DNA of 64,000 nucleotides from Dehalococcoidia bacterium (GCA_963665215.2 CAXXWW010000003.1:94526-158525); one strand, 5' to 3'. Shown: positions 19,203 to 49,030, counted from the stretch's first letter. Numbers and translations: made by a program. The notes: generated by a model not told the origin, from the sequence alone.

Positions 19203-20570
19203 GAGGTTACGTCAATAGGTGTGTAAACGACATCAGGCGGCGACCTTCTCAGCCGTTGATTCAATGGCGATTCCATCCGCATACTGTGCACCGAGATAGA
19301 CGTCTTCGATCAACTCAGGGGCCTTCAGACGCCTGAAGCGCTGTTCGGCGACCATCAACATTTTCCAGATCACCGCTATCGCCCGATCGACCCTCTTGTA
19401 GCGCTTGGCGGCATCGGTCCGAAGCCTGAGGGCCGCGAAGGGTGATTCTACCGGGTTCGTCGTGCGAAGGTGCCCCCAGTGCTCCTTTGGGAAGTCATAG
19501 AAGGTGACCATGCGGTCCCAGTCCCGCTCCAAGGCCTCTGAGGCCGCCTCGTAGGAATGGTCGCCGCACCACCTGGTGAACACCGTCCTGAGCCGCTCAG
19601 CCTCTGTCCGAGTCGGCGCGTAGGGGATAGTACGCAGCATGAGCTTGGCCTGGTCCTGTTGTCGCTTTGGAAGCTTGGCGAGCACGTTTACGATCTTGTG
19701 GTTCCAGCAGCGTTGCTCTGCCGCCTGCGGATAGACGTTGCGCAGAGCTCCCCAGATGCCCAGGTGTCCGTCTCCAACCACCAGCCTCGGGCAGCTCAAG
19801 CCCCGGCGCTTGATGTCCCTGAGCACCTCGGACCAGTTCTCTGTGGACTCCCTGTATCCGGGAACAGCGCTCACCACCACCTTGCTCCCGTCGCTCAGGG
19901 CCGCCATCACCACCAGTACCGCCGCCTTCTCCTTCTCAAGACCAGCCTTGACGTAGACTCCATCCACCCACATGTAGACCACTTCCAGGTCATCGAGGGG
20001 CCGGCTGCGCCATTGGGCAAGCTCATCGTTCCACTTATCCTTCAACCGGGCCACCGTGCTCGCCGATACCGGTGCGTCCTCTCCCAGCAGCCCCCGCAAA
20101 GCCAGATCGAAGTCGCCTTCGGATAGACCGTGCAGGTACAGCTCGGGGATCAACTCAGCAACCTTCCTGGTCCTGTTGACGAACAGCGGCAGCAGCCGGC
20201 TCTCGAACTGCTCCTCGGTATCGCGGACTCGCGGCCGCCTCAGCTGTATCGTTCCCGAACTCAGCGTAAGCCTCCGGGCTCTGCCGTATCCGTTCCGATA
20301 GCCGGTATCTGAGTCCGAGTCGGATCTGAGCGCCGACTTCGCCCTTCCCAGAAACGCCGTCACCTCCTCCTCCAGCAACTCCTGGATCAGCCTCTGGACC
20401 TGGCTTCGCACCCAATCCTCCAACTGCTCCCACTCCGGCCTTGACTCCGACCTACTCTCAGTGCTTTCCTTCCTCATGGGCGGTCTATCTCCTCTCTTGG
20501 GCCTCGAGCCCGTGTTGTTCAGAGAGAGGGTACACCGCCTGACTGTTTACACACTTTTTGAAGATACCTC
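19203..20570 (-). mobile_element. IS256-family insertion sequence, copy A (1368 bp)
   Basis: Ends GAGGTTACGTCAATAGGTGTGTAAAC... and ...GTTTACACACTTTTTGAAGATACCTC. Perfect 8-bp target duplication ATGCCAGC at 19195-19202 and 20571-20578. Confidence 0.92.
19233..20477 (-). CDS. IS256-family (mutator-type) transposase, 414 aa
   Basis: Full-length ORF MRKESTESRSESRPEWEQLEDWVRSQVQRLIQELLEEEVTAFLGR... Five near-identical copies in the window. Confidence 0.92.
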   Translation of the reverse strand: MRKESTESRSESRPEWEQLEDWVRSQVQRLIQELLEEEVTAFLGRAKSALRSDSDSDTGYRNGYGRARRLTLSSGTIQLRRPRVRDTEEQFESRLLPLFVNRTRKVAELIPELYLHGLSEGDFDLALRGLLGEDAPVSASTVARLKDKWNDELAQWRSRPLDDLEVVYMWVDGVYVKAGLEKEKAAVLVVMAALSDGSKVVVSAVPGYRESTENWSEVLRDIKRRGLSCPRLVVGDGHLGIWGALRNVYPQAAEQRCWNHKIVNVLAKLPKRQQDQAKLMLRTIPYAPTRTEAERLRTVFTRWCGDHSYEAASEALERDWDRMVTFYDFPKEHWGHLRTTNPVESPFAALRLRTDAAKRYKRVDRAIAVIWKMLMVAEQRFRRLKAPELIEDVYLGAQYADGIAIESTAEKVAA

Positions 20571-26920: not shown

Positions 26921-28129
26921 TTAGGCGGCTGTCGCCTCCGCGAGATCGGCCTCTGGAAGAGCTTCGTTGAAGGTCAGCACGACAGGTGTGATGTATCGAC
27001 GGCCAACGGCCCATTCGTCGTGCTGCTCAGCCAGGACGGCGCCAACGAGGCGGCGCACGGCCGGCCGGTTAGGGAAGATGCCCACCACATCGGTGCGTCG
27101 CCGGATCTCCTTGTTGAGACGCTCCTGTGGGTTGTTGGACCAGATCTTCTTCCAGTGGGCGAGTGGGAAGTTGGAGAAGGCCAGGACGTCGGGTCCGGCC
27201 TCGTCCAGTAGAGAGGCGACCTGAGGGAACCGGTTCTGGAGTTTGATCGGTCACCCTGTCGAGCTGGGCGTGTACCTCATCGGGGGAGGGTTGCTGGTAG
27301 ATGGTGCGCACCATGGTGGCTACCCATGGCTGGGCGCGCCTGGGGACCCGAGTGAGCAGGTTGGTCATGAAGTGGGTGCGGCACCGTTGCCAGCTGGCTC
27401 CGCCGAAGACTGCGGCGATGGCGCCGCGGAGTCCCTGATGAGCGTCCGATACAACCAGCTCCACCCCGCCGAGGCCCCTGGCGGACAGCGAGCGCAGAAA
27501 GGCCAGCCAGAAGGCGCCGTCTTCACTCGTACCCACGTCCATCCCGATGATCTCCCGCTTGCCCTCGCCATTGACCGCCGTCGCCACCACCACGCTGACG
27601 TTGACGATCCTGCCGTCCTCCCTGACCTTCTGGGTCAGTGCGTCCAGCCACAGGTAGGGGTAGGGTCCAGCGGACGGCCCATGAAGCCATCCACCACCAC
27701 GTCCAGCTCCTGACAGATGCGCGACACCTGGCTCTTGGAGATACCCTCACACCCCAGGGCCTTGACCAGATCGTCCACCCGCCTTGTGGATACACCTTCC
27801 ACGTAGGCCTGCTGGATCACAGCCAGCAGAGCTCGCTCGCTGCGACGCCGTGGCTCCAGCAGGCTCGGGAAGTAGCTCCCTTCTCTAAGCTTCGTGATGT
27901 GCAACTCCATAGTCCCTACCCGGGTATCCCACGCCCGGGACCGATACCCGTTGCGCTGGGTCACCCGCTCAGGGCTGCGTTCTCCATACTCAGCACCGAT
28001 CCTCGATGACACCTCCGCATCCATGATCCCCTCTACCAGCACTCTCAGTGCCTCCCGCAGGAAGTCCACGTCACCGTCCATTCCCCCCTTGCGCAATAGC
28101 TCCAGCAGGTCCATCCTTTCCTTGACCAC
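26921..28129 (-). pseudogene. Second, unrelated IS256-family transposase gene with at least two frameshifts
   Basis: Three consecutive frame segments: MVKERMDLLELLRKGGMDGDVDFLREAL... (28129-27635), ...MVVATAVNGEGKREIIGMDVGTSEDGAFW...SDAHQGL... (27593-~27240), and ..[54 protein letters not shown]... ending at 26921. Confidence 0.8.
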
Positions 28130-28320: not shown

Positions 28321-29040
28321 TTAGGAATCTAGCAGGGCTTCAAAAAGCTCTCGCCAGTCCTCCGCGTTCTCGCTTCCGTAGGTGACACTGGACAGGACGA
28401 CGCCGTTGGAGTTGATAGTCACGTGGGCGGCTTGGCGAGTGACGTTGTAACTCTTCACCACCTCCGCATCAGCGGCGGTCATCGGCCAGGAGAATCCTTC
28501 GGCCTTTTTGTAGGACAGGATCTCTTCGGTGCTCTGCAAGGGATCTACGTTCACCGCAAGAAATCCCACGCGGTCCGCGTATTCGGAGTGAACGTCCTTA
28601 AGGTGCCTCAACGAGGCACGGCAGACTGGTCACCAAGTGGTGTAGAAGTAGAGGACTAATGGGCGGCCCTGGAAGCCTTCCAGGCTGACCTGCTCACCCT
28701 CCACGGTGGTCAGCATGAAACCTGGGGCCTTCTGCCCCACCTTGTGGCCTATCTCCACAGCCACTACGGCAGGCGTCGCCGCAGGCTGTTCAGTTTCCGC
28801 CCCTGTGGCAGGGACTATAGGCGTGGACGCCTGGCTGTCAGCAAACGTCTCGGTCCCGGGTGCTTCGCTGCCACAGCCGGCGAGCATAAGGGCGACCATA
28901 GACAGGCATATGGCCAAAGGCAACCACATAGGTCTTCCAGTGAGCGTGAGCAACACTGCCTTTACACGTCCCTTCACTACGTTCGTAGTCGAACTGCGAG
29001 GATAGCAGGTGGAGTTGATAGTGACCATCTCCGCCTGCAC
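28321..29040 (-). CDS. TlpA/ResA-like thioredoxin-fold lipoprotein with in-frame TGA at the first Cys of the WCxxC motif (candidate selenoprotein, or pseudogene)
   Basis: Single frame: ...MWLPLAICLSMVALMLAGC (lipobox)...GQKAPGFMLTTVEGEQVSLEGFQGRPLVLYFYTTW-TGA-PVCRASLRHLKDVHSEYADRVGFLAVNVD... The TGA is at 28630-28632. The true start is probably at 28965 or 28929. Confidence 0.6.
28603..28619 (-). promoter_or_regulatory. SECIS-like hairpin 10 nt downstream of the in-frame UGA
   Basis: The mRNA reads UGA-CCAGUCUGCC-GUGCCUC-GUU-GAGGCAC: a perfect 7-bp stem with a triloop starting with G. Confidence 0.35.
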
Positions 29041-29556: not shown

Positions 29557-30773
29557 TTAGAGTCCATCCCGGCCTCGCAGCAGCCCGCTCCGGAGTTCTG
29601 CGGCAGCCTCTCGCGCCCTCTCGGGATGGTCCTTCAGGTCGAGGTACGCCTGTACCGGGTGGACGCACCGTATTCCCTCGACCTCGCTGGCTCCGTCGAA
29701 GACGCCTTCGTCGTTGGGTATTACCAGCCAGGTGTTGGCGCCCCTTGGTTCTTCCCGGAAGCCGATGTCGGCCAGGAGCGCTTCCGAGGGGATCTCGGAC
29801 AGATATACGGTTGCCAGCCGGAACCCGGCGTGCCGTGTCCACAGCCACGCGGCCGGAAGCGCGGTCACCGCATAGGGTAGTTCCATCTTTGAAAGGGTTT
29901 CGGCCAGCGACCGTGTCAGACCGTCCCCCGAGCCGGACGCGATGTGTCCCCGCAGCACTGTGTGCCGGTCGAACCGGTATTCCTCCTGCCAGGAATCGAG
30001 CAGCAGGTTAGCGTCGGCAACGCGAATACCATCCCTGCCGCGTCGAGGCCAAGAGAGGAGATAGACCGCCCATGAGGAAGGAAAGCACTGAGAGTAGGTC
30101 GGAGTCAACCAACGGACTCCAGCAGCTTGCCCACGATGCGGCTCACATGCCCCTCGTCCAGACCGGTGCTGGACGCGAGGGTGCGCTGCCGGGCCGTTTC
30201 GCTAGGTTCCATCAGCAGCCGCCTGGCTATTCGTGAACCCTTTGGGGCAAAGGCGTTTTCCGGCCGGCACGATGGGCACGCCTGAGACAGATGCGCTGGG
30301 GTTTCGCTGGCCAAGGCTATTTGAATAAAAGATTGGGGTGGAACAGATTGGGGTGGCCAAGGTTTTGATAAAAGACCCGGCGCTATGATTCTGGCATTGC
30401 CGGAAAGGTCCAGCCATGGCAATCTGGCCTGGGCGCAATGCTCCCGCGCCGGTTCCCCCATGTAAGGCACCGCCAGCAGCGGAATCACCCCATCGGGAAA
30501 GCCATCCCTAGCTTCACTCATCTGATGGATTGCCAGGGCCACTTGGTTCAGAGAGCCGGACCGCTTCCATTCCACGGCGAAGGAGTTAGGCCCAACAGAA
30601 AAAACAGCATCCCAGTTCTGGCCATTGACGTAAGGAACGTCAAAGCACCTGTTGACGATATGACCGAGAACCTCAAATATTTCGGCCAGACGATCGGCTA
30701 CCTGACCAACGGCTATGTGTTCATGTGGGACTCGCATACTTGCTTGTATATCATAGCTTGCATGCCTACACAA
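29557..30773 (-). pseudogene. Nuclease-like/HTH/AbiEi-antitoxin-like protein gene, disrupted
   Basis: The N-terminal ORF has a PD-(D/E)xK-like DAVFSVGPNSFAVEWK and an HTH (RTLASSTGLDEGHVSRIVGKLLE). The C-terminal ORF (IRVADANLLLDSWQEEYRFDRH...VHPVQAYLDLKDHPERAREAAAELR) resembles the AbiEi C-terminal domain. The two are out of frame across an IS256-derived insert. Confidence 0.45.
30043..30108 (+). repeat. 66-bp internal fragment of the IS256 element (RBS plus the first 14 transposase codons) embedded in the AbiEi-like gene
   Basis: TCGAGGCC-AAGAGAGGAGATAGACCGCCCATGAGGAAGGAAAGCACTGAGAGTAGGTCGGAGTCAA matches 42337-42403 of IS256 copy C apart from one missing C. Neither IS terminus is present. 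Confidence 0.85.
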
Positions 30774-31358: not shown

Positions 31359-33049
31359 CCCGAATCCACCGAAAGGCTGAGGTTACAGCAGGGGAATGGG
31401 CGATGAGGGGCAAGGGGAGGCGATGGTCCGGGCACGATTTTGCGTAGAGGGGGCCGGTGTCTGTCTTCAGTCGCCGCGGGGAGACCTTGTGACCGTCTGC
31501 GGACGTTGGGCAGGGCGAGATGGTGGGGAGAGGGCGCAGCAAGAAACCCTCGCGGACCGGGCTGGCGCGAGTTGGCGGGGACCTTCGGTTGTCCGTTGGG
31601 TGGCTCAGGCACCGACGTGCCGTCAGGCAGGGAGTGGAATCGCTCGCAGCCATGCCAGGGCGCGGCTGAACTGGGTTTCCCAGGGCCAATGCTTGGGAAG
31701 ATACAAAGTGAGGCGGCGCGCCAGAGCGAAGAACCGCCGCCGGAGGGTCTTGGTGGTCACGGCCCGTTCGCCCAGACCGATTCGCGCTGTCCAGCGGGCC
31801 AGGTTGTGGGCCATCACCTGTACCGCCAACCAAGCGGCGTTGGCGGCGAAGCGGCCTGAGGGGAGATGGTTCAGCCCGACGCCGTACTTGAGGTCTCGGA
31901 TGGCATTCTCGATCTCGGCGTGGCGGCGATGGTCAGCCTCCAGTTCGAGCATCTCCCCGTCCCGGTCGGTGATGAAGCCGTGATAGCTGTAGGTGGCGAA
32001 GAGGGCCAGTTGGGAACCGGGCGTGGGCTTCACCCGCCGGACGATGAGCCGCACCGGTGCGGCGCCGGGCTCAGTGCGGAAGGGGGTGCAGTTGGTCTCC
32101 GCCACATCGGCGGCGCCGTCCATCCAGTAGGGGATGGGCGTCCAGTCCCTCTCGGGTATCGCCTCGATGAGATTGCGCAGGCTTTTGTGCTGGCGGATGG
32201 TGATGGAGAAGCACACGTCCATCTTGCGGCAGACGGATACCACGCTATGAGTGTGGAAGCCCCTGTCGGCCCGCATCGTGAGTTGCCCCTGGGCCCCGGC
32301 GTAGCGTACCCGCCCCACCGTCTCCCGCAGGAAGTGGGCAGCGCCCCGAGTGGTGTTGGCGCGGCCCTCGCGCAGCCGGGACATCAGCACGTCCCTGGTG
32401 CCGGCGGCGATGGCCAACAGCGGGTGATAGCCCCTCTTGCCGGTATAGCCGTGGTATCGTGCGCCCTCCTTAGCCAGTCCGTAGGTCTCGCAGATGGTGG
32501 AATCGAGGTCGAGGGTGAACGGCGCGTCGCCGGGTCCCGCCCCGGCGGCCCATGCCCGTGCCAGCAACTCCCGGCTCACTCGGTCCAGCTGGCGAACGTG
32601 GCCCCACCGGAAGCTGCGCAGGAAGGTCCCCAGGGTGGATGGCGCCTTGACCATGCCGCCGAGAGCGCAGCCCGTCCCGCCGGCGCGCAGCGCATCGGCG
32701 TCGTCGATGCAGTCGCCGCCCGCCAGCGCAGACGCAACCAGGGTCATCATCTTGTCGCCGGTGTTGGCCCGCCCCGGCGCGCTGCCGAGATCGAGGTGAT
32801 AGTCTACGAGTTCCCCCAGGCCCAGGTGTTGGGCGAGGGTGGCCGGCAGGAGCAGGCCGGCATTGGCCACCAGGCGGTGGTCGTCAAAGACGATGCGAAT
32901 ACGGTCGGGGTGGTTGCGTGGTAGCATCTATACGGGTGCTCCTTTTCCGGGGTCGGTTTCTTGTTGCAAAACCATTATCCCAGATTCAGAGGAGCACCTT
33001 TTCGCCCCTTCAGATGGCCGCTTACACCCACTCGTCCGGTGGATTGGGG
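31359..33049 (-). mobile_element. Diverged IS1380-family element (1691 bp), copy 2
   Basis: Ends CCCGAATCCACCGAAAGG and CCGGTGGATTGGGG. Flanked by TTAAG at 31354-31358 and 33050-33054. Its transposase is about 85% identical to the other copies over the first 100 aa (by eye). Confidence 0.85.
31623..32927 (-). CDS. IS1380-family transposase, diverged paralogue (434 aa)
   Basis: MLPRNHPDRIRIVFDDHRLVANAGLLLPATLAQHLGLGELV...; full-length ORF. Confidence 0.9.
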   Translation of the reverse strand: MLPRNHPDRIRIVFDDHRLVANAGLLLPATLAQHLGLGELVDYHLDLGSAPGRANTGDKMMTLVASALAGGDCIDDADALRAGGTGCALGGMVKAPSTLGTFLRSFRWGHVRQLDRVSRELLARAWAAGAGPGDAPFTLDLDSTICETYGLAKEGARYHGYTGKRGYHPLLAIAAGTRDVLMSRLREGRANTTRGAAHFLRETVGRVRYAGAQGQLTMRADRGFHTHSVVSVCRKMDVCFSITIRQHKSLRNLIEAIPERDWTPIPYWMDGAADVAETNCTPFRTEPGAAPVRLIVRRVKPTPGSQLALFATYSYHGFITDRDGEMLELEADHRRHAEIENAIRDLKYGVGLNHLPSGRFAANAAWLAVQVMAHNLARWTARIGLGERAVTTKTLRRRFFALARRLTLYLPKHWPWETQFSRALAWLRAIPLPA

Positions 33050-33196: not shown

Positions 33197-36100
33197 TCAA
33201 ATACGGACAACCTCCGGCTCTGTGGCACCGCGTTGGGCTGCTGCATCCACGAACCAATCCACGATCTGCGGGTGGCAGGTGAATACCAGCACTTGATTTG
33301 TCTCAGAGAGTTTGATGAATGATCCAGCGGCCTTGGGTCCCCTGATCGGGTCGAAGTTCACCAATACCTCGTCCACGATCACCGGCAGGCGTTCCGCCCG
33401 CAGGCTCAGCTCAAGGATCAACCCGAACCGAAGCGCTAGGAACAATTGCTCGCGGGTGCCGCGGCTCAGCTCTTGAGGGGTCTTGTCTATGCCAGCAGCG
33501 TCTCTGACCTTTATCTCAGAACTGCCCAGCGGGGAAAAGACGGCCTGGTATGCGCCATTGGTTAAGTCGAGGAAGAAGCGCTCGGCGTGGTGGATCACAT
33601 CCGGCTGCCGCTCCCGCTCGAACTTGCTTTGCGCCTGGCGTATCAGGCTTTCGGCAATCGTGAGGATCGCCCAATCCCGTGCGCGCCCCTGCAACTCTTC
33701 CGCCACTCGATGACGTTCCAACCTCAACCTCGATGAATCTTCCTCGTTGGCGAGGCCATCGAGACGGGTTTGGATAGCCCCACGCTCTGTATCCAATTCA
33801 GACCGTTGCGCATCTGTCTCTTCCAGTTCTGCCTCACATTGCCGCACGCCATCACGGATGGTATGCAAATCGGTCTCGGACAACGCGGTTCGGAGCGCTG
33901 ACAGGGCATCGCCCGGCCCACTGATCCGTTGCATCTGCTCCAGAGCGCTGGAGATTGTTGCGGTCAGAGCGGTCCGTTCCTGGAAAATCTGGTGGCGCCT
34001 GCGGAAGTCGTCAGCGTCCTCTGCCTCTCCGGACTTCAGCAGCGCCGCAATCTCTTCAGTGACCTCTTCTTGGCTCTTCTCCCGCACCTCTAACTCTTGT
34101 TCAGCCTCCTCCAACTCCTTCTCAGCATCGGCGCGTGTGCGAGCCGCTTCTGACACATCGCGATGCAGGTCAATAATGTCGTCGGCTACACCCGCGACCT
34201 TGGCGTAGTCGCTCCACTCGACTTCAAAGCCGTGAGCTCGAGACAGCTGTCGAGCCATGCCGATGAATTCATCGATATCCGTTTGAATGGCGGTAATGCG
34301 ACCCTCCATGCCGATCGCGTCGCGATGGTGAGTCTTCGCCAAGTCCACGAGGGTGCGCAGTTCTTGGATGCCGTCGGGCGAGAACGTGCTCAACAGGCCG
34401 CGTTGCTGAAGCCAGGCCTGCCAGGCTTGTTCCTCAGCCTCCAACGCCACCTGAGCATGCTGGACGGACTGCTGCGCTTCCTCTAGCCGCAGGGTTTGGC
34501 GTTCGACGCGTTCGGTCGATTGGGCCAGTCTCGCTTCCAGTTGTTGCCATTCCCTGAGCCTCGTTTCCGCCGTATCCAGCCCTTCCTCGGCTTCCACCAA
34601 CGCGTCCGCGTCGAGAGCCTCCAAGCCCAATGCATCAGTGTCTGTCTGGAGCCGAGAGCGGATTGCCGCCAACTCCTCATCGGCCTCGCGGATTTGCCGT
34701 TGAACTCGCGCCGCCGCTGGGGATCCCGTGCCTAGGTCTGGCGAACGACCTCTGACGAACCAGAACGCCGCCATCGTGGACAGCACGGCGCCGATTACAG
34801 CCAGGAAGGCGCCGGCTTCGAACGTGGTGGCCGCTACAAGCCAAAGACCAAGCACCAGTAGCGCGACACCCAACCCCCCAACCAGACCGGCTATCAGATG
34901 GAACCCGCCGCCTTTCGGCGTTGCCTCCCCAAAATCTGAACCATCACCGATCTGTTCTCGTAGATCCCTGCTTCGCTCTGCGACGCGGGTCAACTCCCCC
35001 AGGGTATTCCTGGAGTGTCGAATTTGTCGGCGGTGGTCGCGGATAACGCTCTCGTTCAGCTCGGGTGGAGCGGCGCTATCCCGGTCGACCTGCGCCTTTT
35101 CAGCATCCTCTTGGGCATCCGCCAGCGCCGTCTCTTCTTGCGCCAGCGAAGTTCGAGATCCTTGGATTGCGGTCCGGGCGGTCCGAAGGCGCTCGCCATG
35201 TTTGACAACCTCCTCACGGACGACCAGCGAGAGGTCGAAACTATTGAGGCGCTCCGTGTCCCAGTCGGAACCCAAGTTCCCCAGTGAGACACCCAGCTCG
35301 GAGCGTTTGCCGGAGAGTTCTGTCCGTCTCTCAGGTAAATCTTTGACCGACTGGTCGAATGCGCTTCGAGCGCGCTCGAGTTCTCGAACTTTGTTCGAGG
35401 TCTCCAGGATCATCAGGTGCTCGATCTCCTGGTCAGCGCTAGCCTTGATGCGTTTCACCCGTTCATCTGAAGAGGTTAGTTCCCGACGGGCGGTTTCGGC
35501 CCGTGTCTCAAGGGATTCCAGGAGGACGATTCCATTATCTGGAAACTCCTCAACCGCCGGCATTTCCGCCAGTCGTTGCTCCGCATTGATGACGTCGTTC
35601 CAAGGATCCCAAGCGCGGATGAGGTCTTCTTGCCGTTCCTTTTCCGACATGAGTCGCAGGCGCCGCTCGCCCACGCCTTTCAATTCTCCTTCAATCTCGG
35701 TCAGGCGTTCCGATTGGCGACGATATTCCGCCGCAAAACCCGCGATTTTCTGCAAATCCGAATTCGTTCGTTCAATCGCGTTTGCGACTTTAGGAACAAT
35801 CTGGCTGCTGCCCCGTGGAGCAAAAATCTTCCTCCTCTGGCTTTCTAATTCTGCGAGGGCAGCTGGCAGTCTCATCGCTCCGATGCCGGCGCTGTAGATC
35901 TGCAGGTTGACACTGTCGTCATTCAGCAGGCCTTCATTGTTCAACTCATCCAGGGTGAAGGCAAAGAAACTTTCGAATACACTCCTCGAGTGGTTTCCCA
36001 GCAACCTCGGCAACTCATTGCTTGGAATCGCTTCGCCGGCGCTGGAACTGAGCGTAACCAGACCAGATCCCCTGCCCTGGGTACGCTGGATTGTGATCAA

Positions 36101-36343
36101 TTCCTCCGCGTCGGTGGCGATCGTAACCCTTCCGCCGTGCCGACCGCCGTACAAGGGCGGATATGGGTTGCCCCTGCTGCGGCCATCCGGGAACCCGAAT
36201 AGTACCCGACGGATGAATTCAAGCAGGGTGCTCTTGCCAGCCTCGTTGGGCCCGTAGAAAACCGCAACCGGACGCTCCAACGGGCCGAAACTGCGATCGG
36301 TGAAACGCCCGAATCCGTCGATATGCAGCCCAGTGATTCTCAT
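33197..36343 (-). CDS. YhaN/SbcC-like AAA ATPase (Rad50/SMC-type) with a central double-transmembrane hairpin
   Basis: Walker A GPNEAGKST, long Glu/Arg/Leu-rich coiled-coil stretches, signature LSRGTREQ and Walker B LPVIVDEVLVNFD. Hydrophobic FHLIAGLVGGLGVALLVLGLWLVAATTFEAGAFLAVIGAVLSTMAAFWFV is encoded at 34757-34903. No CxxC zinc hook. Confidence 0.85.
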   Translation of the reverse strand: MRITGLHIDGFGRFTDRSFGPLERPVAVFYGPNEAGKSTLLEFIRRVLFGFPDGRSRGNPYPPLYGGRHGGRVTIATDAEELITIQRTQGRGSGLVTLSSSAGEAIPSNELPRLLGNHSRSVFESFFAFTLDELNNEGLLNDDSVNLQIYSAGIGAMRLPAALAELESQRRKIFAPRGSSQIVPKVANAIERTNSDLQKIAGFAAEYRRQSERLTEIEGELKGVGERRLRLMSEKERQEDLIRAWDPWNDVINAEQRLAEMPAVEEFPDNGIVLLESLETRAETARRELTSSDERVKRIKASADQEIEHLMILETSNKVRELERARSAFDQSVKDLPERRTELSGKRSELGVSLGNLGSDWDTERLNSFDLSLVVREEVVKHGERLRTARTAIQGSRTSLAQEETALADAQEDAEKAQVDRDSAAPPELNESVIRDHRRQIRHSRNTLGELTRVAERSRDLREQIGDGSDFGEATPKGGGFHLIAGLVGGLGVALLVLGLWLVAATTFEAGAFLAVIGAVLSTMAAFWFVRGRSPDLGTGSPAAARVQRQIREADEELAAIRSRLQTDTDALGLEALDADALVEAEEGLDTAETRLREWQQLEARLAQSTERVERQTLRLEEAQQSVQHAQVALEAEEQAWQAWLQQRGLLSTFSPDGIQELRTLVDLAKTHHRDAIGMEGRITAIQTDIDEFIGMARQLSRAHGFEVEWSDYAKVAGVADDIIDLHRDVSEAARTRADAEKELEEAEQELEVREKSQEEVTEEIAALLKSGEAEDADDFRRRHQIFQERTALTATISSALEQMQRISGPGDALSALRTALSETDLHTIRDGVRQCEAELEETDAQRSELDTERGAIQTRLDGLANEEDSSRLRLERHRVAEELQGRARDWAILTIAESLIRQAQSKFERERQPDVIHHAERFFLDLTNGAYQAVFSPLGSSEIKVRDAAGIDKTPQELSRGTREQLFLALRFGLILELSLRAERLPVIVDEVLVNFDPIRGPKAAGSFIKLSETNQVLVFTCHPQIVDWFVDAAAQRGATEPEVVRI

Positions 36344-37596
36344 TAGCGGTCTTCCTCGGCGAGCAGGTTCATGGCCAACGTTTCCGCTTCGTCGAGCAGC
36401 GCCGCGATTTCTTCGACGGTGAAAGCGGAAAGATATCGTCTGTATCGCGTGTGTTGGTAGAGGTCAGCAAGCCCATCAAGGAGCGACGTGGGAGATTCCC
36501 TCATCTGATCAGCAGTGCGCAGCACCTCGCCTAGGAAATCCTCGCCGGCCCGCATGGCCTCCCGGTCAATCGGAGCGGCGGTTTGGTCTTCAATTCGTTC
36601 GCACCACGCAAACGGCAGCCGGCCAGCCCAGTGTTCGTTGACGCCCTCCAGGGTGTCGTCCAATGCGTTGGTCTGGCGCAGGAAATGGTTCAACTTGCCT
36701 CGGCCCGTCAGAGTTATGCGGGCGACAACTGACCTGCGCTCTGCACTATCCAGCAAGCCTTGCATTGCATCATCGATCTCGTTGAGCAGGTCCTCTTCAG
36801 TCTCCAACGCGCTGATGTCTATTCTCGCCCGTTCCCATCGCACCGTGTCCGTGGGGCGAAAATCCAGGCTGACGCTGCCGTTCGGATCGACTTCAACCAG
36901 GTAAACGCCCCTGGCGCCGGCCTCGTTGGGGTGTCGCCCTTGCGAATTGCCCGGATACACCACCGTCGGAGTTCGTTCGCGGAGTATCTGGCGCGTGTGG
37001 ACGTGGCCCAACGCCCAGTAGTCGATCCCCGACCGCGCCAGATCATCCAGCGAGCAGGGGGCATACGGCGCGTGGTCAGTGTTGCCGCCGACGTTGGCGT
37101 GCAGCAGGCCGATGGTAAAGGCACGCTCGTCCACCTGCCCAAGACGCGTGACGAGATTCTTGTCCACGTCCCGAGTCGGATAGCTGATCCCGTAAACCAA
37201 CGCGCGATCAGGTTCATCGGGGAAGACGGGCGCCGCTGAGAATTCAGCGCCGAATCGATGGCATCCGGCAGGGTACGACAGCCGCGCTTCCCAGCCGTCC
37301 AGCGGGTCGTGGTTCCCGTGGCATATAAACGACCGTATACCGGCAGCATCCAGCCTGTTCAAACCATCGATGAAGGCACGCTGGGCGCGCAGACTGCGGT
37401 CGGCCCCGTCGTAAATGTCGCCGGCGACGAGCAGGGCATCCACCCGCTCGAAGATACAGAGGTCTACGATCTCTCTGTAGGAATCGAAAGTGGCCGAGTA
37501 AAGTGCCTTGGCCACATTTTCCGGCGCGGCTGCTCTGATACCCATGAACGGACTGTCCAAATGGAGGTCAGCGGCGTGAACAAAACGCAAGGTCAT
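36343..37596 (-). CDS. YhaO/SbcD-like calcineurin-type metallophosphoesterase (DNA repair exonuclease family)
   Basis: Motifs FVHAADLHLD, LLVAGDIYD, CHGNHD and GHVH. The stop overlaps the ATPase start (ATGA at 36343). Confidence 0.85.
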   Translation of the reverse strand: MTLRFVHAADLHLDSPFMGIRAAAPENVAKALYSATFDSYREIVDLCIFERVDALLVAGDIYDGADRSLRAQRAFIDGLNRLDAAGIRSFICHGNHDPLDGWEARLSYPAGCHRFGAEFSAAPVFPDEPDRALVYGISYPTRDVDKNLVTRLGQVDERAFTIGLLHANVGGNTDHAPYAPCSLDDLARSGIDYWALGHVHTRQILRERTPTVVYPGNSQGRHPNEAGARGVYLVEVDPNGSVSLDFRPTDTVRWERARIDISALETEEDLLNEIDDAMQGLLDSAERRSVVARITLTGRGKLNHFLRQTNALDDTLEGVNEHWAGRLPFAWCERIEDQTAAPIDREAMRAGEDFLGEVLRTADQMRESPTSLLDGLADLYQHTRYRRYLSAFTVEEIAALLDEAETLAMNLLAEEDR

Positions 37597-37865: not shown

Positions 37866-39233
37866 GAGGTTACGTCAATAGGTGTGTAAACGACATCAGG
37901 CGGCGACCTTCTCAGCCGTTGATTCAATGGCGATTCCATCCGCATACTGTGCACCGAGATAGACGTCTTCGATCAACTCAGGGGCCTTCAGACGCCTGAA
38001 GCGCTGTTCGGCGACCATCAACATTTTCCAGATCACCGCTATCGCCCGATCGACCCTCTTGTAGCGCTTGGCGGCATCGGTCCGAAGCCTGAGGGCCGCG
38101 AAGGGTGATTCTACCGGGTTCGTCGTGCGAAGGTGCCCCCAGTGCTCCTTTGGGAAGTCATAGAAGGTGACCATGCGGTCCCAGTCCCGCTCCAAGGCCT
38201 CTGAGGCCGCCTCGTAGGAATGGTCGCCGCACCACCTGGTGAACACCGTCCTGAGCCGCTCAGCCTCTGTCCGAGTCGGCGCGTAGGGGATAGTACGCAG
38301 CATGAGCTTGGCCTGGTCCTGTTGTCGCTTTGGAAGCTTGGCGAGCACGTTTACGATCTTGTGGTTCCAGCAGCGTTGCTCTGCCGCCTGCGGATAGACG
38401 TTGCGCAGAGCTCCCCAGATGCCCAGGTGTCCGTCTCCAACCACCAGCCTCGGGCAGCTCAAGCCCCGGCGCTTGATGTCCCTGAGCACCTCGGGCCAGT
38501 TCTCTGTGGACTCCCTGTATCCGGGAACAGCGCTCACCACCACCTTGCTCCCGTCGCTCAGGGCCGCCATCACCACCAGTACCGCCGCCTTCTCCTTCTC
38601 AAGACCAGCCTTGACGTAGACTCCATCCACCCACATGTAGACCACTTCCAGGTCATCGAGGGGCCGGCTGCGCCATTGGGCAAGCTCATCGTTCCACTTA
38701 TCCTTCAACCGGGCCACCGTGCTCGCCGATACCGGTGCGTCCTCTCCCAGCAGCCCCCGCAAAGCCAGATCGAAGTCGCCTTCGGATAGACCGTGCAGGT
38801 ACAGCTCGGGGATCAACTCAGCAACCTTCCTGGTCCTGTTGACGAACAGCGGCAGCAGCCGGCTCTCGAACTGCTCCTCGGTATCGCGGACTCGCGGCCG
38901 CCTCAGCTGTATCGTTCCCGAACTCAGCGTAAGCCTCCGGGCTCTGCCGTATCCGTTCCGATAGCCGGTATCTGAGTCCGAGTCGGATCTGAGCGCCGAC
39001 TTCGCCCTTCCCAGAAACGCCGTCACCTCCTCCTCCAGCAACTCCTGGATCAGCCTCTGGACCTGGCTTCGCACCCAATCCTCCAACTGCTCCCACTCCG
39101 GCCTTGACTCCGACCTACTCTCAGTGCTTTCCTTCCTCATGGGCGGTCTATCTCCTCTCTTGGGCCTCGAGCCCGTGTTGTTCAGAGAGAGGGTACACCG
39201 CCTGACTGTTTACACACTTTTTGAAGATACCTC
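37866..39233 (-). mobile_element. IS256-family insertion sequence, copy B (1368 bp)
   Basis: Same termini as copy A. Perfect 8-bp target duplication CAGCGAAC at 37858-37865 and 39234-39241. Confidence 0.92.
37896..39140 (-). CDS. IS256-family transposase (414 aa)
   Basis: Differs from copy A by one residue (ENWPEVL versus ENWSEVL). Confidence 0.92.
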   Translation of the reverse strand: MRKESTESRSESRPEWEQLEDWVRSQVQRLIQELLEEEVTAFLGRAKSALRSDSDSDTGYRNGYGRARRLTLSSGTIQLRRPRVRDTEEQFESRLLPLFVNRTRKVAELIPELYLHGLSEGDFDLALRGLLGEDAPVSASTVARLKDKWNDELAQWRSRPLDDLEVVYMWVDGVYVKAGLEKEKAAVLVVMAALSDGSKVVVSAVPGYRESTENWPEVLRDIKRRGLSCPRLVVGDGHLGIWGALRNVYPQAAEQRCWNHKIVNVLAKLPKRQQDQAKLMLRTIPYAPTRTEAERLRTVFTRWCGDHSYEAASEALERDWDRMVTFYDFPKEHWGHLRTTNPVESPFAALRLRTDAAKRYKRVDRAIAVIWKMLMVAEQRFRRLKAPELIEDVYLGAQYADGIAIESTAEKVAA

Positions 39234-40110: not shown

Positions 40111-41829
40111 CCCGAATCCACCGAAGGACACCGATGGACGGCGTGAGGAAAGCGGAAGGGGGGTGAGGGAGCTACAGGGGAAATAGCCTGGGTTCCATTT
40201 GGGGTAGGGAGGTCGGCGGACGGTCTTCATCGCCGCACAGGGGCCCCTATGGCCGTCTGCGGGAGCTGCGATGCGCGGGATGGCGAGAGAATACGCAGCA
40301 GGGAACTCTCTCGGACCGGGCTGGCACGAGTCTGCGGGGATCTTCGGTTGTCCGGTGGGTGGGTCGGTCGCCGACGGTGCCGTCAGGCCGGGAGTGGAAT
40401 GGCTCGCAGCCGGGCCAAGGCGCGGCTGAACTTCTCAGCCCAAGGCCAGCGATCCGGAAGATGCAGGGTCAACCGGCGTGCCGAGCGGGTGAGCCGTCCG
40501 GCCAGGGAGAAGAACCGCCGCCGGAGGGTCTTGGTGGTGGCTATCCGCTCTCCCAGACCGATCCGCGCCGTCCAGCGGGCCAGGTTGTGGGCCATCGTCT
40601 GGACGGCCAGCCAGGCGCCGTTGGCGGCGAAGCGGCCCGAGGGGAGATGGTTCAGCCCGACGCCGTACTTGAGGTCGCGTATGGCATTCTCGATCTCGGC
40701 GTGGCGGCGATGGTCAGCCTCCAGTTCGAGCAACTCCCCGTCCCGGTCGGTGATGAAGCCATGATAGCTGTATTTGGCGAAGAGGGCCAGTTGGGAACCG
40801 GGCGTCGGCTTCACCCGCCGGACGATGAGCCGTACCGGCGCGGCGTCCGCCTCGGCCTGGAAGGGGGTGCAGGTGGTCTCGGCCACATCGGCGGCGCCGT
40901 CCATCCAGTAAGGAATCGGCGTCCAGGCATCTTCGGGTATCGCCTCGATGAGATTGTGCAGGCTTTTGTGCTGGCGGATGGTGATGGAGAAGCGGACATC
41001 CATCTTGCGGCAGACGGATACCACGCCATGAGTGTAGAACCCGCTGTCGGCCCGTAGCGTGAGTCGTCCGTTGGCCCCGGCGTAGCGCACCCGTCCCACC
41101 GTCTCCCGCAGGAAGTGGGCGGCGCCGCGGGCGGTGTTGGCCCGGCCCTCGCGCAGCCGGGACATCAGCACGTCTCCGGTGCCGGCGGCGATGGCCAGCA
41201 GCGGGTGGTAGCCCCGCTTGCCGGTATAGCCGTGGTGGCGGGCGCCCTCCTTGGCCAGTCCGTAGGTCTCGCAGATGGTGGAGTCCAGGTCAATGGTCAG
41301 GGGCCCGTCGCCGGGTCCCGCCCCGGCCTGCCAAGCCCGGGCCAGCAACTCGCGGCTCACCCGGTCGAGTTGACGGACGTGGCCCCACCGGAAGCTGCGC
41401 AGGAAGGTGCCCAGGGTGGATGGCGCCTTGACCGTGCCGCCCAGGGTGCAGGCCGTCCCCCCGGTGCGCAACACATCGGCGTCGTCAATGCAGTCGCCCC
41501 CAGCCAGCGCAGACGCCACCAGCGTCATCATCTTGTCGCTCGTGTTCGCCCGCCCCGGGGCATCGCCTAGGTCGAGGCGCTGCCGGACGAGTTCGGGCAG
41601 GCCGAGGTGCCGCGCCAGGGTGGCCGGAAGGAGCAGCCCGGCATTGGCCACCAAGCGGCGGTCGTCGAAGGTGATTTGGATCCGGTCGGGGTGGTTGCGT
41701 GGCAGCATCTACTGGGTGCTCCTTTTCCGGGGCCGTTTTTTTGCTACAAAACCATTATCCCAGAAGCACAGGAGCACCTTCTTGCCGCCTCAGGACGCTA
41801 ACCCGACGCCCTCCTTCGGTGGATTCGGG
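40111..41829 (-). mobile_element. IS1380-family insertion sequence, copy 3 (1719 bp)
   Basis: Same inverted repeats as copy 1. Flanks are CTAAG (40106-40110) and CTAAA (41830-41834), matching in only 4 of 5 positions. Confidence 0.9.
40383..41708 (-). CDS. IS1380-family transposase (441 aa)
   Basis: Protein identical to copy 1; a few synonymous differences at the DNA level. Confidence 0.92.
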   Translation of the reverse strand: MLPRNHPDRIQITFDDRRLVANAGLLLPATLARHLGLPELVRQRLDLGDAPGRANTSDKMMTLVASALAGGDCIDDADVLRTGGTACTLGGTVKAPSTLGTFLRSFRWGHVRQLDRVSRELLARAWQAGAGPGDGPLTIDLDSTICETYGLAKEGARHHGYTGKRGYHPLLAIAAGTGDVLMSRLREGRANTARGAAHFLRETVGRVRYAGANGRLTLRADSGFYTHGVVSVCRKMDVRFSITIRQHKSLHNLIEAIPEDAWTPIPYWMDGAADVAETTCTPFQAEADAAPVRLIVRRVKPTPGSQLALFAKYSYHGFITDRDGELLELEADHRRHAEIENAIRDLKYGVGLNHLPSGRFAANGAWLAVQTMAHNLARWTARIGLGERIATTKTLRRRFFSLAGRLTRSARRLTLHLPDRWPWAEKFSRALARLRAIPLPA

Positions 41830-42281: not shown

Positions 42282-43649
42282 GAGGTATCTTCAAAAAGTG
42301 TGTAAACAGTCAGGCGGTGTACCCTCTCTCTGAACAACACGGGCTCGAGGCCCAAGAGAGGAGATAGACCGCCCATGAGGAAGGAAAGCACTGAGAGTAG
42401 GTCGGAGTCAAGGCCGGAGTGGGAGCAGTTGGAGGATTGGGTGCGAAGCCAGGTCCAGAGGCTGATCCAGGAGTTGCTGGAGGAGGAGGTGACGGCGTTT
42501 CTGGGAAGGGCGAAGTCGGCGCTCAGATCCGACTCGGACTCAGATACCGGCTATCGGAACGGATACGGCAGAGCCCGGAGGCTTACGCTGAGTTCGGGAA
42601 CGATACAGCTGAGGCGGCCGCGAGTCCGCGATACCGAGGAGCAGTTCGAGAGCCGGCTGCTGCCGCTGTTCGTCAACAGGACCAGGAAGGTTGCTGAGTT
42701 GATCCCCGAGCTGTACCTGCACGGTCTATCCGAAGGCGACTTCGATCTGGCTTTGCGGGGGCTGCTGGGAGAGGACGCACCGGTATCGGCGAGCACGGTG
42801 GCCCGGTTGAAGGATAAGTGGAACGATGAGCTTGCCCAATGGCGCAGCCGGCCCCTCGATGACCTGGAAGTGGTCTACATGTGGGTGGATGGAGTCTACG
42901 TCAAGGCTGGTCTTGAGAAGGAGAAGGCGGCGGTACTGGTGGTGATGGCGGCCCTGAGCGACGGGAGCAAGGTGGTGGTGAGCGCTGTTCCTGGATACAG
43001 GGAGTCCACAGAGAACTGGTCCGAGGTGCTCAGGGACATCAAGCGCCGGGGCTTGAGCTGCCCGAGGCTGGTGGTTGGAGACGGACACCTGGGCATCTGG
43101 GGAGCTCTGCGCAACGTCTATCCGCAGGCGGCAGAGCAACGCTGCTGGAACCACAAGATCGTAAACGTGCTCGCCAAGCTTCCAAAGCGACAACAGGACC
43201 AGGCCAAGCTCATGCTGCGTACTATCCCCTACGCGCCGACTCGGACAGAGGCTGAGCGGCTCAGGACGGTGTTCACCAGGTGGTGCGGCGACCATTCCTA
43301 CGAGGCGGCCTCAGAGGCCTTGGAGCGGGACTGGGACCGCATGGTCACCTTCTATGACTTCCCAAAGGAGCACTGGGGGCACCTTCGCACGACGAACCCG
43401 GTAGAATCACCCTTCGCGGCCCTCAGGCTTCGGACCGATGCCGCCAAGCGCTACAAGAGGGTCGATCGGGCGATAGCGGTGATCTGGAAAATGTTGATGG
43501 TCGCCGAACAGCGCTTCAGGCGTCTGAAGGCCCCTGAGTTGATCGAAGACGTCTATCTCGGTGCACAGTATGCGGATGGAATCGCCATTGAATCAACGGC
43601 TGAGAAGGTCGCCGCCTGATGTCGTTTACACACCTATTGACGTAACCTC
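42282..43649 (+). mobile_element. IS256-family insertion sequence, copy C (1368 bp), no target duplication
   Basis: Complete termini, but the flanks GTTTGAAG (42274-42281) and GGGGGAGG (43650-43657) do not match. Confidence 0.9.
42375..43619 (+). CDS. IS256-family transposase (414 aa)
   Basis: Protein identical to copy A. Confidence 0.92.
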   Translation: MRKESTESRSESRPEWEQLEDWVRSQVQRLIQELLEEEVTAFLGRAKSALRSDSDSDTGYRNGYGRARRLTLSSGTIQLRRPRVRDTEEQFESRLLPLFVNRTRKVAELIPELYLHGLSEGDFDLALRGLLGEDAPVSASTVARLKDKWNDELAQWRSRPLDDLEVVYMWVDGVYVKAGLEKEKAAVLVVMAALSDGSKVVVSAVPGYRESTENWSEVLRDIKRRGLSCPRLVVGDGHLGIWGALRNVYPQAAEQRCWNHKIVNVLAKLPKRQQDQAKLMLRTIPYAPTRTEAERLRTVFTRWCGDHSYEAASEALERDWDRMVTFYDFPKEHWGHLRTTNPVESPFAALRLRTDAAKRYKRVDRAIAVIWKMLMVAEQRFRRLKAPELIEDVYLGAQYADGIAIESTAEKVAA

Positions 43650-47662: not shown

Positions 47663-49030
47663 GAGGTTACGTCAATAGGTGTGTAAACGACATCAGGCGG
47701 CGAGCTTCTCAGCCGTTGATTCAATGGCGATTCCATCCGCATACTGTGCACCGAGATAGACGTCTTCGATCAACTCAGGGGCCTTCAGACGCCTGAAGCG
47801 CTGTTCGGCGACCATCAACATTTTCCAGATCACCGCTATCGCCCGATCGACCCTCTTGTAGCGCTTGGCGGCATCGGTCCGAAGCCTGAGGGCCGCGAAG
47901 GGTGATTCTACCGGGTTCGTCGTGCGAAGGTGCCCCCAGTGCTCCTTTGGGAAGTCATAGAAGGTGACCATGCGGTCCCAGTCCCGCTCCAAGGCCTCTG
48001 AGGCCGCCTCGTAGGAATGGTCGCCGCACCACCTGGTGAACACCGTCCTGAGCCGCTCAGCCTCTGTCCGAGTCGGCGCGTAGGGGATAGTACGCAGCAT
48101 GAGCTTGGCCTGGTCCTGTCGTCGCTTTGGAAGCTTGGCGAGCACGTTTACGATCTTGTGGTTCCAGCAGCGTTGCTCTGCCGCCTGCGGATAGACGTTG
48201 CGCAGAGCTCCCCAGATGCCCAGGTGTCCGTCTCCAACCACCAGCCTCGGGCAGCTCAAGCCCCGGCGCTTGATGTCCCTGAGCACCTCGGACCAGTTCT
48301 CTGTGGACTCCCTGTATCCGGGAACAGCGCTCACCACCACCTTGCTCCCGTCGCTCAGGGCCGCCATCACCACCAGTACCGCCGCCTTCTCCTTCTCAAG
48401 ACCAGCCTTGACGTAGACTCCATCCACCCACATGTAGACCACTTCCAGGTCATCGAGGGGCCGGCTGCGCCATTGGGCAAGCTCATCGTTCCACTTATCC
48501 TTCAACCGGGCCACCGTGCTCGCCGATACCGGTGCGTCCTCTCCCAGCAGCCCCCGCAAAGCCAGATCGAAGTCGCCTTCGGATAGACCGTGCAGGTACA
48601 GCTCGGGGATCAACTCAGCAACCTTCCTGGTCCTGTTGACGAACAGCGGCAGCAGCCGGCTCTCGAACTGCTCCTCGGTATCGCGGACTCGCGGCCGCCT
48701 CAGCTGTATCGTTCCCGAACTCAGCGTAAGCCTCCGGGCTCTGCCGTATCCGTTCCGATAGCCGGTATCGTTGTCCGAGTCGGATCTGAGCGCCGACTTC
48801 GCCCTTCCCAGAAACGCCGTCACCTCCTCCTCCAGCAACTCCTGGATCAGCCTCTGGACCTGGCTTCGCACCCAATCCTCCAACTGCTCCCACTCCGGCC
48901 TTGACTCCGACCTACTCTCAGTGCTTTCCTTCCTCATGGGCGGTCTATCTCCTCTCTTGGGCCTCGAGCCCGTGTTGTTCAGAGAGAGGGTACACCGCCT
49001 GACTGTTTACACACTTTTTGAAGATACCTC
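47663..49030 (-). mobile_element. IS256-family insertion sequence, copy D (1368 bp)
   Basis: Perfect 8-bp target duplication CCTCCTCT at 47655-47662 and 49031-49038. Confidence 0.92.
47693..48937 (-). CDS. IS256-family transposase (414 aa)
   Basis: Three substitutions relative to copy A (SDSDN, KRRQDQ, AEKLAA). Confidence 0.92.
   Translation of the reverse strand: MRKESTESRSESRPEWEQLEDWVRSQVQRLIQELLEEEVTAFLGRAKSALRSDSDNDTGYRNGYGRARRLTLSSGTIQLRRPRVRDTEEQFESRLLPLFVNRTRKVAELIPELYLHGLSEGDFDLALRGLLGEDAPVSASTVARLKDKWNDELAQWRSRPLDDLEVVYMWVDGVYVKAGLEKEKAAVLVVMAALSDGSKVVVSAVPGYRESTENWSEVLRDIKRRGLSCPRLVVGDGHLGIWGALRNVYPQAAEQRCWNHKIVNVLAKLPKRRQDQAKLMLRTIPYAPTRTEAERLRTVFTRWCGDHSYEAASEALERDWDRMVTFYDFPKEHWGHLRTTNPVESPFAALRLRTDAAKRYKRVDRAIAVIWKMLMVAEQRFRRLKAPELIEDVYLGAQYADGIAIESTAEKLAA

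Follow-up and report, generated by a model that had tools for sequence, protein, structure and literature searches.

Selenoproteins that combine a thioredoxin fold with a UxxC redox motif are long established, and a cis-proline (cis-Pro) is almost universal in thioredoxin folds. A 2026 review lists two families of this kind, i.e., a Prx-like thiol:disulfide oxidoreductase (PF00578, with UxxC or UxxU) and a "Redoxin family protein" (PF08534, with UxxC) (PMC13188914). The same review gives a consensus for bacterial SECIS elements with an apical loop of 3-9 nt, an upper stem of 4-16 bp, a G in the first two loop positions, a UGA-to-loop distance of 16-37 nt, and a minimum free energy of at most -7.5 kcal/mol (PMC13188914). 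Among bacteria rich in such genes, the BSepDB resource places two metagenome-assembled genomes (MAGs) of the Dehalococcoidia with 49 and 46 selenoprotein genes in its top ten, and one of them carries a UUID-type isolate name like nine of the twelve MAGs described below (PMC13326102). These counts support the use of selenocysteine (Sec, U) at the level of the class only.

An earlier sequence-only reading of 64,000 nucleotides of Dehalococcoidia DNA (GCA_963665215.2 CAXXWW010000003.1:94526-158525; this whole stretch is called the window here) had proposed a candidate UxxC selenoprotein with a SECIS hairpin, with thioredoxin-fold proteins of the UxxC type as a common selenoprotein class, and the review cited above indeed lists such families (PMC13188914). 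The proposal is supported by the conservation of the TGA codon, by selection on both halves of the gene, and by constraint and covariation in the hairpin, and we consider it highly probable that the in-frame UGA encodes selenocysteine.

On the minus strand of the window, positions 29040-28321 form one reading frame that is interrupted only by TGA at 28632-28630 and ends with TAA at 28323-28321. Both ORFs named in the sequence-only reading (28630-29040 and 28321-28611) are present in the ORF listing and are, as it had claimed, one frame split by this TGA alone; all of its coordinates are correct. The TGA stands in the context ...GRPLVLYFYTTW-[TGA]-PVCRASLRHLKDV..., and the residues around it read ...RPLVLYFYTTW-[TGA]-PVCRASLRHLK.... 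The gene has the following features:

28321-28956, minus strand: complete coding sequence of 211 codons including the proposed Sec codon, from GTG 28956 to TAA 28323-28321
28873-28956, minus strand: lipoprotein signal peptide predicted by motif only, ending in the lipobox L-A-G-C; sequence VLLTLTGRPMWLPLAICLSMVALMLAGC
28875-28873, minus strand: codon of the lipobox cysteine
28759-28872, minus strand: linker of about 38 residues between lipid anchor and fold, rich in Pro, Thr, Ala, and Glu
28324-28758, minus strand: TlpA/ResA-like thioredoxin-fold (redoxin) domain, from Pfam matches and sequence matches to the PDB
28630-28632, minus strand: in-frame TGA, the proposed Sec codon and U of W-U-P-V-C
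28621-28623, minus strand: resolving Cys of UxxC, TGC in all 13 aligned species (TGT, also Cys, at locus L021)
28603-28619, minus strand: SECIS-like hairpin GUGCCUC-GUU-GAGGCAC, upper stem and apical loop
28591-28632, minus strand: possible extended SECIS with two short lower helices added by RNAalifold

GTG 28956 rather than position 29040 is probably the true start because the gene calls of orthologues begin with MLTL or MLLTL in alignment with this codon. ATG 29028 and ATG 28929 are possible alternatives, and a scan for promoters and terminators yielded nothing helpful for placing the start site. The signal peptide of the window protein ends in ...LSMVALMLAGC, which on inspection fits the lipobox motif [LVI][ASTVI][GAS]C, and the orthologues keep the xxGC/xxSC type (LTGC, LAGC, LISC, or LVGC) with one atypical LTNC. 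The protein is thus predicted, from the lipobox motif only, to be a bacterial lipoprotein. Signal peptide and linker are the least constrained columns of a 13-species alignment, with a dN/dS of 0.42 and indels between species.

For searches of domain models, C was substituted for U. The product matches Pfam AhpC-TSA (PF00578) with 72.2 bits (E 4.8e-20, gathering cut-off 26) and Redoxin (PF08534) with 65.7 bits (E 5.3e-18, gathering cut-off 26.6), and its nearest solved structures by sequence are ResA, StoA, and TlpA-like proteins in the PDB (E 1e-11 to 1e-15). In the aligned ResA/TlpA-like chains, the U column coincides with the first Cys of WCxxC, and distant Cys-type relatives read WCKPC, WCPPC, or WCPVC at this position. 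Both alignments agree with the initial suggestion that TGA replaces the first cysteine of WCxxC in a TlpA/ResA-like lipoprotein. Scores against the NCBIfam models for ResA, StoA, and TlpA (NF002854, NF041202, and NF047696) are below the cut-offs, with 65.6 versus 170, 48 versus 210, and 30.7 versus 230, so that the protein is a relative rather than a member of ResA, StoA, or TlpA proper. The selenoprotein models of NCBIfam likewise remain far from their cut-offs, with 21.4 bits versus 100 for NF053656, 15.8 versus 300 for NF041054, 15.6 versus 120 for NF040769, and 16.8 versus 270 for NF040737.

The column of the cis-Pro is occupied by Ala in the window protein (RQAAHV, window 28420-28440) when aligned with 3KCM, by sequence alignment only, and the wider family of Sec- and Cys-type proteins shows a Q-S/A-S/T-K motif there. 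The conserved cis-Pro loop facing the active site thus appears to have been lost in the redoxin clade. Beyond this column, the wider family shows a conserved [FY]R.GYG...W, and the redoxin clade reads SSV.YGS....W. These features could define a distinct TlpA-like subfamily.

Orthologues were sought in protein and genome collections. Among about 5.8 billion protein clusters, 18 relatives were found, 17 of them N-terminal halves and one a C-terminal half. All 17 N-terminal relatives (55-100% identity) stop exactly at ...YF[YF]x[TR]W, and there was no full-length Cys orthologue among the 18. A scan of one genome per species across 185,579 species used a pattern in the N-terminal part of the protein and was therefore blind to the U or C state of the motif. 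It recovered full-length matches in 12 species of Dehalococcoidia MAGs (65-82% identity), and in all 12 of them the codon is TGA and the frame is open before and after it. The TGA and a frame that is open to the normal stop were likewise seen at another four loci (L021, L026, L027, and L028). Altogether, TGA is kept in 17/17 loci of the orthologue group (the window and 16 other Dehalococcoidia) and in all seven genes of five more distant loci (L030-L034), and no orthologue found has TGC at this codon. The comparison of orthologues for Cys or Sec that the sequence-only reading had called for thus came out in favor of Sec. An additional scan of metagenomes for orthologues found only four distant Cys-type TlpA-like proteins with 27-31% identity. 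Sequences that carry the redoxin gene include five complete chromosomes (OZ240206.1, OZ244792.1, OZ220697.1, OZ244723.1, and OZ242262.1) and two contigs (CBDCYU010000003.1 and CBDHEI010000002.1).

Both sides of the TGA are under similar purifying selection, with a dN/dS of 0.19 upstream and 0.22 downstream at a dS of about 0.6 in a 13-species codon alignment, and the 102 codons after the TGA contain neither an indel nor an extra stop. The impression that both halves of the gene are undamaged is therefore borne out by selection in the same frame, with no other inactivating mutations. TGA is the redoxin gene's own terminator in 7 of the 13 species and ends 9 of 37 neighboring genes at three loci (L016, L027, and L028). 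Since it works as an ordinary stop in these same genomes, the genetic code is not reassigned, and code reassignment was ruled out as an explanation. As a side observation from this small sample, the 37 neighboring genes end in TAG (22), TGA (9), or TAA (6); a minority share of TGA among stops is not what would be expected in G+C-rich genomes.

The TGA is followed by 10 nt (CCAGUCUGCC) and then, at 28619-28603, by the perfect hairpin GUGCCUC-GUU-GAGGCAC that had been noticed from the sequence, with a 7-bp stem and the loop GUU. The window has a single copy of this 17-mer, compared to 0.04 expected within two mismatches. It begins 11 nt after the UGA, the distance from UGA to loop is 17 nt, and the 17 nt by themselves fold at -10.1 kcal/mol. 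The element thus fits the bacterial SECIS consensus in loop, stem length, spacing, and energy, and the geometry given in the sequence-only reading agrees with the published one (PMC13188914). A few relatives have weaker bare 17-mers (-5.5 to -7.3 kcal/mol), and the distant paralogue L030b has the loop AUUUG, which lacks a G at its first and second positions. The folding energy of the surrounding 71 nt is unexceptional (z = -1.43), and the case for a SECIS element is therefore based on conservation, not on stability. RNAalifold adds lower helices that reach back to the UGA and include its last two bases (GA) and the C that follows. Because these lower pairs change one-sidedly (G-U to G-C and U-G to C-G), we regard the extended element as tentative. 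Rfam contains no SECIS family matching the hairpin, and at a permissive threshold the region around it gave a chance match only (Glutamine-II, E 7.8).

Codons +3 to +9 after the TGA (TGC CGT GCC TCG TTG AGG CAC) show no synonymous change across 13 species. Within the hairpin, a run of five codons with at least four-fold degeneracy is invariant, compared to a background of 20 invariant codons in 90, and two of the conserved codons are rare: In neighboring genes, CGT accounts for 6% of the codons for Arg and TTG for 8% of those for Leu. The few changes seen in the stem of close orthologues include several that preserve pairing, i.e., U-A to C-G in L021, C-G to U-G in L001, and U-A to U-G in L003 and L026. 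In 5 of 14 aligned orthologue-group sequences, the closing pair does not form. With so little variation in the element, covariation among close orthologues alone is weak and is reached by 39 of 500 shuffles.

More divergent sequences were obtained by searching the 102 residues after the TGA against 1.84 billion cluster representatives. Among the best 150 hits, 65 are proteins of at most 105 aa without CxxC, and 85 are longer, 69 of which carry xCxxC. Those of the short hits that were inspected or aligned start a few residues past the motif position; these are C-terminal halves of split genes. A profile built from 16 C-terminal halves retrieved 48 more hits, all of them fragments, and the loci were read for five (L030-L034). 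These hold seven genes, with two tandem genes each at L030 and L031. All seven are called as two fragments, the N-terminal one ending 18 nt ahead of the C-terminal one, with a TGA between them in the motif [WT]-U-P-x-C, and each carries a hairpin in identical register (10-nt spacer, 6-7 bp) built from other stem sequences such as GGUCUG/CAGACC, GUUCCG/CGGAAC, GCGCCGC/GCGGCGC, and AUGCGG/CCGCAU.

In an alignment of 10 close and 4 distant sequences (A4), 92.9% of cells pair versus no more than 51% after sliding of the 3' partners. Compensatory changes are found in 5 of the 7 pairs (12 cells), and the covariation score of 0.463, compared to 0.134 in shuffles, is reached by none of 500. Whether the hairpin covaries had been named in advance as a check on the proposal, and in the wider family it does. 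The hairpin is thus conserved in close relatives and covarying in distant ones.

From these observations, we propose that the two called ORFs are one selenoprotein gene whose product would be an exported lipoprotein on the outer side of the cytoplasmic membrane. There, a linker rich in Pro and Thr would hold a TlpA/ResA-like domain with the redox motif W-U-P-V-C in place of W-C-x-x-C. During translation, the UGA at 28632-28630 would be read as selenocysteine, with the hairpin at 28619-28603 (6-7 bp, loop GUU) acting as a bacterial SECIS. This element presumably brings SelB with Sec-tRNA(Sec) to the ribosome, where it would compete with release factor 2. In the mature protein, the U-P-V-C couple would be expected to alternate between selenolate/thiol and selenenylsulfide (Se-S) states, and the likely role of the protein is that of an extracytoplasmic thiol-disulfide reductase.

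The genes around the redoxin gene differ between species, and there is no conserved operon context. None of the loci examined has ccdA, resB, or resC among the neighbors; this, together with the unconserved context, gives no indication of a role in cytochrome c maturation. At L001/L016 and at L032, where the proteins are about 40% identical after the UGA, the gene adjoins the same block of ispG, rseP, dxr, cdsA, uppS, frr, pyrH, tsf, and rpsB, and the other flank is variable. The exact N-terminal product of the window gene is also present on 21 metagenome contigs, and the four of these that were read (L017-L020) have differing flanks with transposases and phage portal, replicase, restriction, and TIR genes. 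One copy among them (L019, 3x coverage) has a frameshifted C-terminus (...SSVHLRKRERGG...), whose cause may be misassembly or decay of this copy. In the window, the gene lies among many insertion sequence (IS) ORFs and a few other genes of note:

592-1917: IS ORF, DDE_Tnp_1_4 transposase by domain scan
19233-20477: IS ORF of 414 aa, Mutator/IS256-family transposase by domain scan
31623-32927: IS ORF, DDE_Tnp_1_4 transposase by domain scan
37896-39140: IS ORF
40383-41708: IS ORF
42375-43619: IS ORF
47693-48937: IS ORF
50477-51802: IS ORF
27069-28129, minus strand: broken IS256-family transposase directly downstream of the redoxin gene
29557-30108, minus strand: AbiEi-like antitoxin or regulator, the upstream neighbor
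33197-37596, minus strand: ATPase of 1048 aa (AAA_27/SMC_N) and metallophosphoesterase of 417 aa

Four of the IS ORFs encode 414 aa, three 441 aa, and one 434 aa, and those that carry no domain assignment above are inferred to be IS copies from identical ORF length. The two ORFs of the broken transposase (27635-28129 and 27069-27593) cover profile positions 8-157 and 184-300. The pair at 33197-37596 resembles SbcC/SbcD, which is our reading of the domains, and together with the AbiEi-like gene it would fit an island of defense genes and mobile elements.

Several other readings of these data deserve consideration. Going beyond a Sec codon in a single gene, the wider group might be a distinct and uncatalogued selenoprotein family that is typical of Dehalococcoidia, forms a selenium redox system anchored at the cell surface, and uses a minimal SECIS of 6-7 bp; we think this rather unlikely. 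The features of such a family may include the lipoprotein signal, the long Pro/Thr linker, a redoxin domain with [WT]-U-P-x-C, the Q-S/A-S/T-K motif, and sometimes tandem Sec genes. Tandem Sec-type redoxin lipoprotein genes are seen at L030 (8790-9374 and 9398-10294) and L031 (8778-9362 and 9386-10294), in both cases downstream of hydantoinase A/B genes. A different arrangement is found in one protein of 274 aa (P0148) with two redoxin domains, the first of Cys type (FFFATWCPICR) and the second stopping at ...FLFFAATW as if it were of Sec type and cut at its own UGA; two others (P0230 and P0238) end in the same way. Less likely than such a family is a lineage that decodes UGA without the canonical SelA/SelB route.

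Alternatively, the UGA could be read through without Sec by a near-cognate tRNA (for Cys or Trp) or by a SelB-like factor delivering Cys, with the hairpin as a stimulator, as would apply if the lineage had no selenophosphate or SelA. A downstream stem-loop can in principle stimulate read-through without SelB, and no Sec machinery came to light in the window and about 570 kb of related loci, which is a small sample per genome: There were no genes for selA, selB, or selD, there was no tRNA-Sec by ARAGORN or Rfam, and tblastn with E. coli SelA, SelB, and SelD matched IF-2 only. A scan of the same sequences for UxxC and CxxU motifs also gave only noise besides the target family, i.e., no second selenoprotein gene. 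However, the codon coincides exactly with the nucleophilic Cys of a redox motif, a position that is the hallmark of Sec, and the hairpin matches the geometry of a SelB-type SECIS. TGC would suffice to encode Cys, yet no TGC form was found, and MAGs of the same class are reported with up to 46-49 selenoprotein genes (PMC13326102). We therefore consider read-through without Sec improbable.

Even less probable is that translation stops at the UGA and yields a truncated N-terminal lipoprotein with at most a separate C-terminal piece starting at TTG 28611, in a split or regulatory arrangement. It is true that every gene caller produces exactly two products that are 18 nt apart. However, a break there would divide the CxxC active site of one thioredoxin fold, so that neither half would be functional. 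The six codons that separate the UGA and the internal start (P-V/T-C-R-A-S), among them that of the resolving Cys, are also conserved at the amino acid level. The supposed start itself (TTG or ATG) is a conserved Leu or Met codon inside the hairpin loop.

The weakest alternative, already named in the sequence-only reading, is a pseudogene created by a single TGC/TGT-to-TGA nonsense mutation next to a coincidental hairpin; gene decay is common in a setting full of IS elements with a broken IS256-family transposase directly downstream, and the L019 copy is indeed frameshifted, but the shared TGA at 17/17 orthologue-group loci and in seven genes at five distant ones, the dN/dS of 0.22 over 102 intact downstream codons, the lack of any Cys-type orthologue in two very large collections, and the independence of the related loci, which are not assembly copies (dS about 0.6, differing neighbors, separate contigs), refute a nonsense mutation and leave a pseudogene next to no probability.

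With selenocysteine as the preferred reading of the UGA, the main practical value of these results is a correction of annotation in which gene callers had split one gene in two. All copies of the redoxin gene and its wider family that we found in one collection, which comprises about 15 billion predicted proteins, are stored as two fragments, and no current NCBIfam selenoprotein redoxin model that we scored would flag the gene in an annotation pipeline. It follows from the split calls and from the lack of an NCBIfam selenoprotein model at cut-off that selenoprotein counts for Dehalococcoidia MAGs may be too low unless homology searches pairing Sec with Cys are used. The gene adds a predicted exported and lipid-anchored UxxC redoxin to a class already reported to be rich in selenoproteins, and its hairpin is a clean case of a very short SECIS with good covariation that could help to refine models of bacterial SECIS elements. 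What is known about Sec decoding and thioredoxin-fold selenoproteins remains unchanged, and the finding will not surprise a specialist.

Compared to the described systems, the hairpin differs from the SECIS of the E. coli fdhF type in being much shorter, with an upper stem of 6-7 bp and a loop of 3 or 5 nt, and in having no evident bulged U, sequence similarity, or Rfam match. In both cases, the stem-loop lies inside the coding sequence and closely follows the UGA, its apical loop carries a G followed by a U, and the spacing is suited to present this loop to SelB. Among proteins, ResA, StoA, and TlpA (PDB 1ST9, 3ERW, and 3C71) share the thioredoxin fold and a WCxxC-type motif at the same position, as well as a membrane anchor and a domain outside the cytoplasm, as predicted for the window protein. 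However, the latter would have Sec for the nucleophilic Cys and scores far below the NCBIfam cut-offs, and it is further set apart from textbook TlpA/ResA by its lipoprotein-plus-linker architecture and the apparent loss of the cis-Pro. Described selenoproteins modeled in NCBIfam (NF053656 with a TUGYCR motif, the ResA-like NF041054 with WAxxUGC, the SelL-related NF040769, and PrxU, NF040737) have the thioredoxin fold in common with it and are in part ResA-like, but the window motif is TW-U-P-[VT]-C-R rather than UGC or TUGYCR. Close counterparts are also the Prx-like and Redoxin selenoproteins, from which the redoxin clade differs by its lipoprotein signal, its long Pro/Thr linker, and the apparent cis-Pro loss. 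They share the AhpC-TSA and Redoxin domains, the UxxC motif with Sec for the N-terminal Cys, and a SECIS directly downstream in the coding sequence. With a PF00578 domain and U in UxxC, the protein fits the definition of the Prx-like family, and the gene is an addition to the known UxxC redoxin/Prx-like class, placed there by this family definition.
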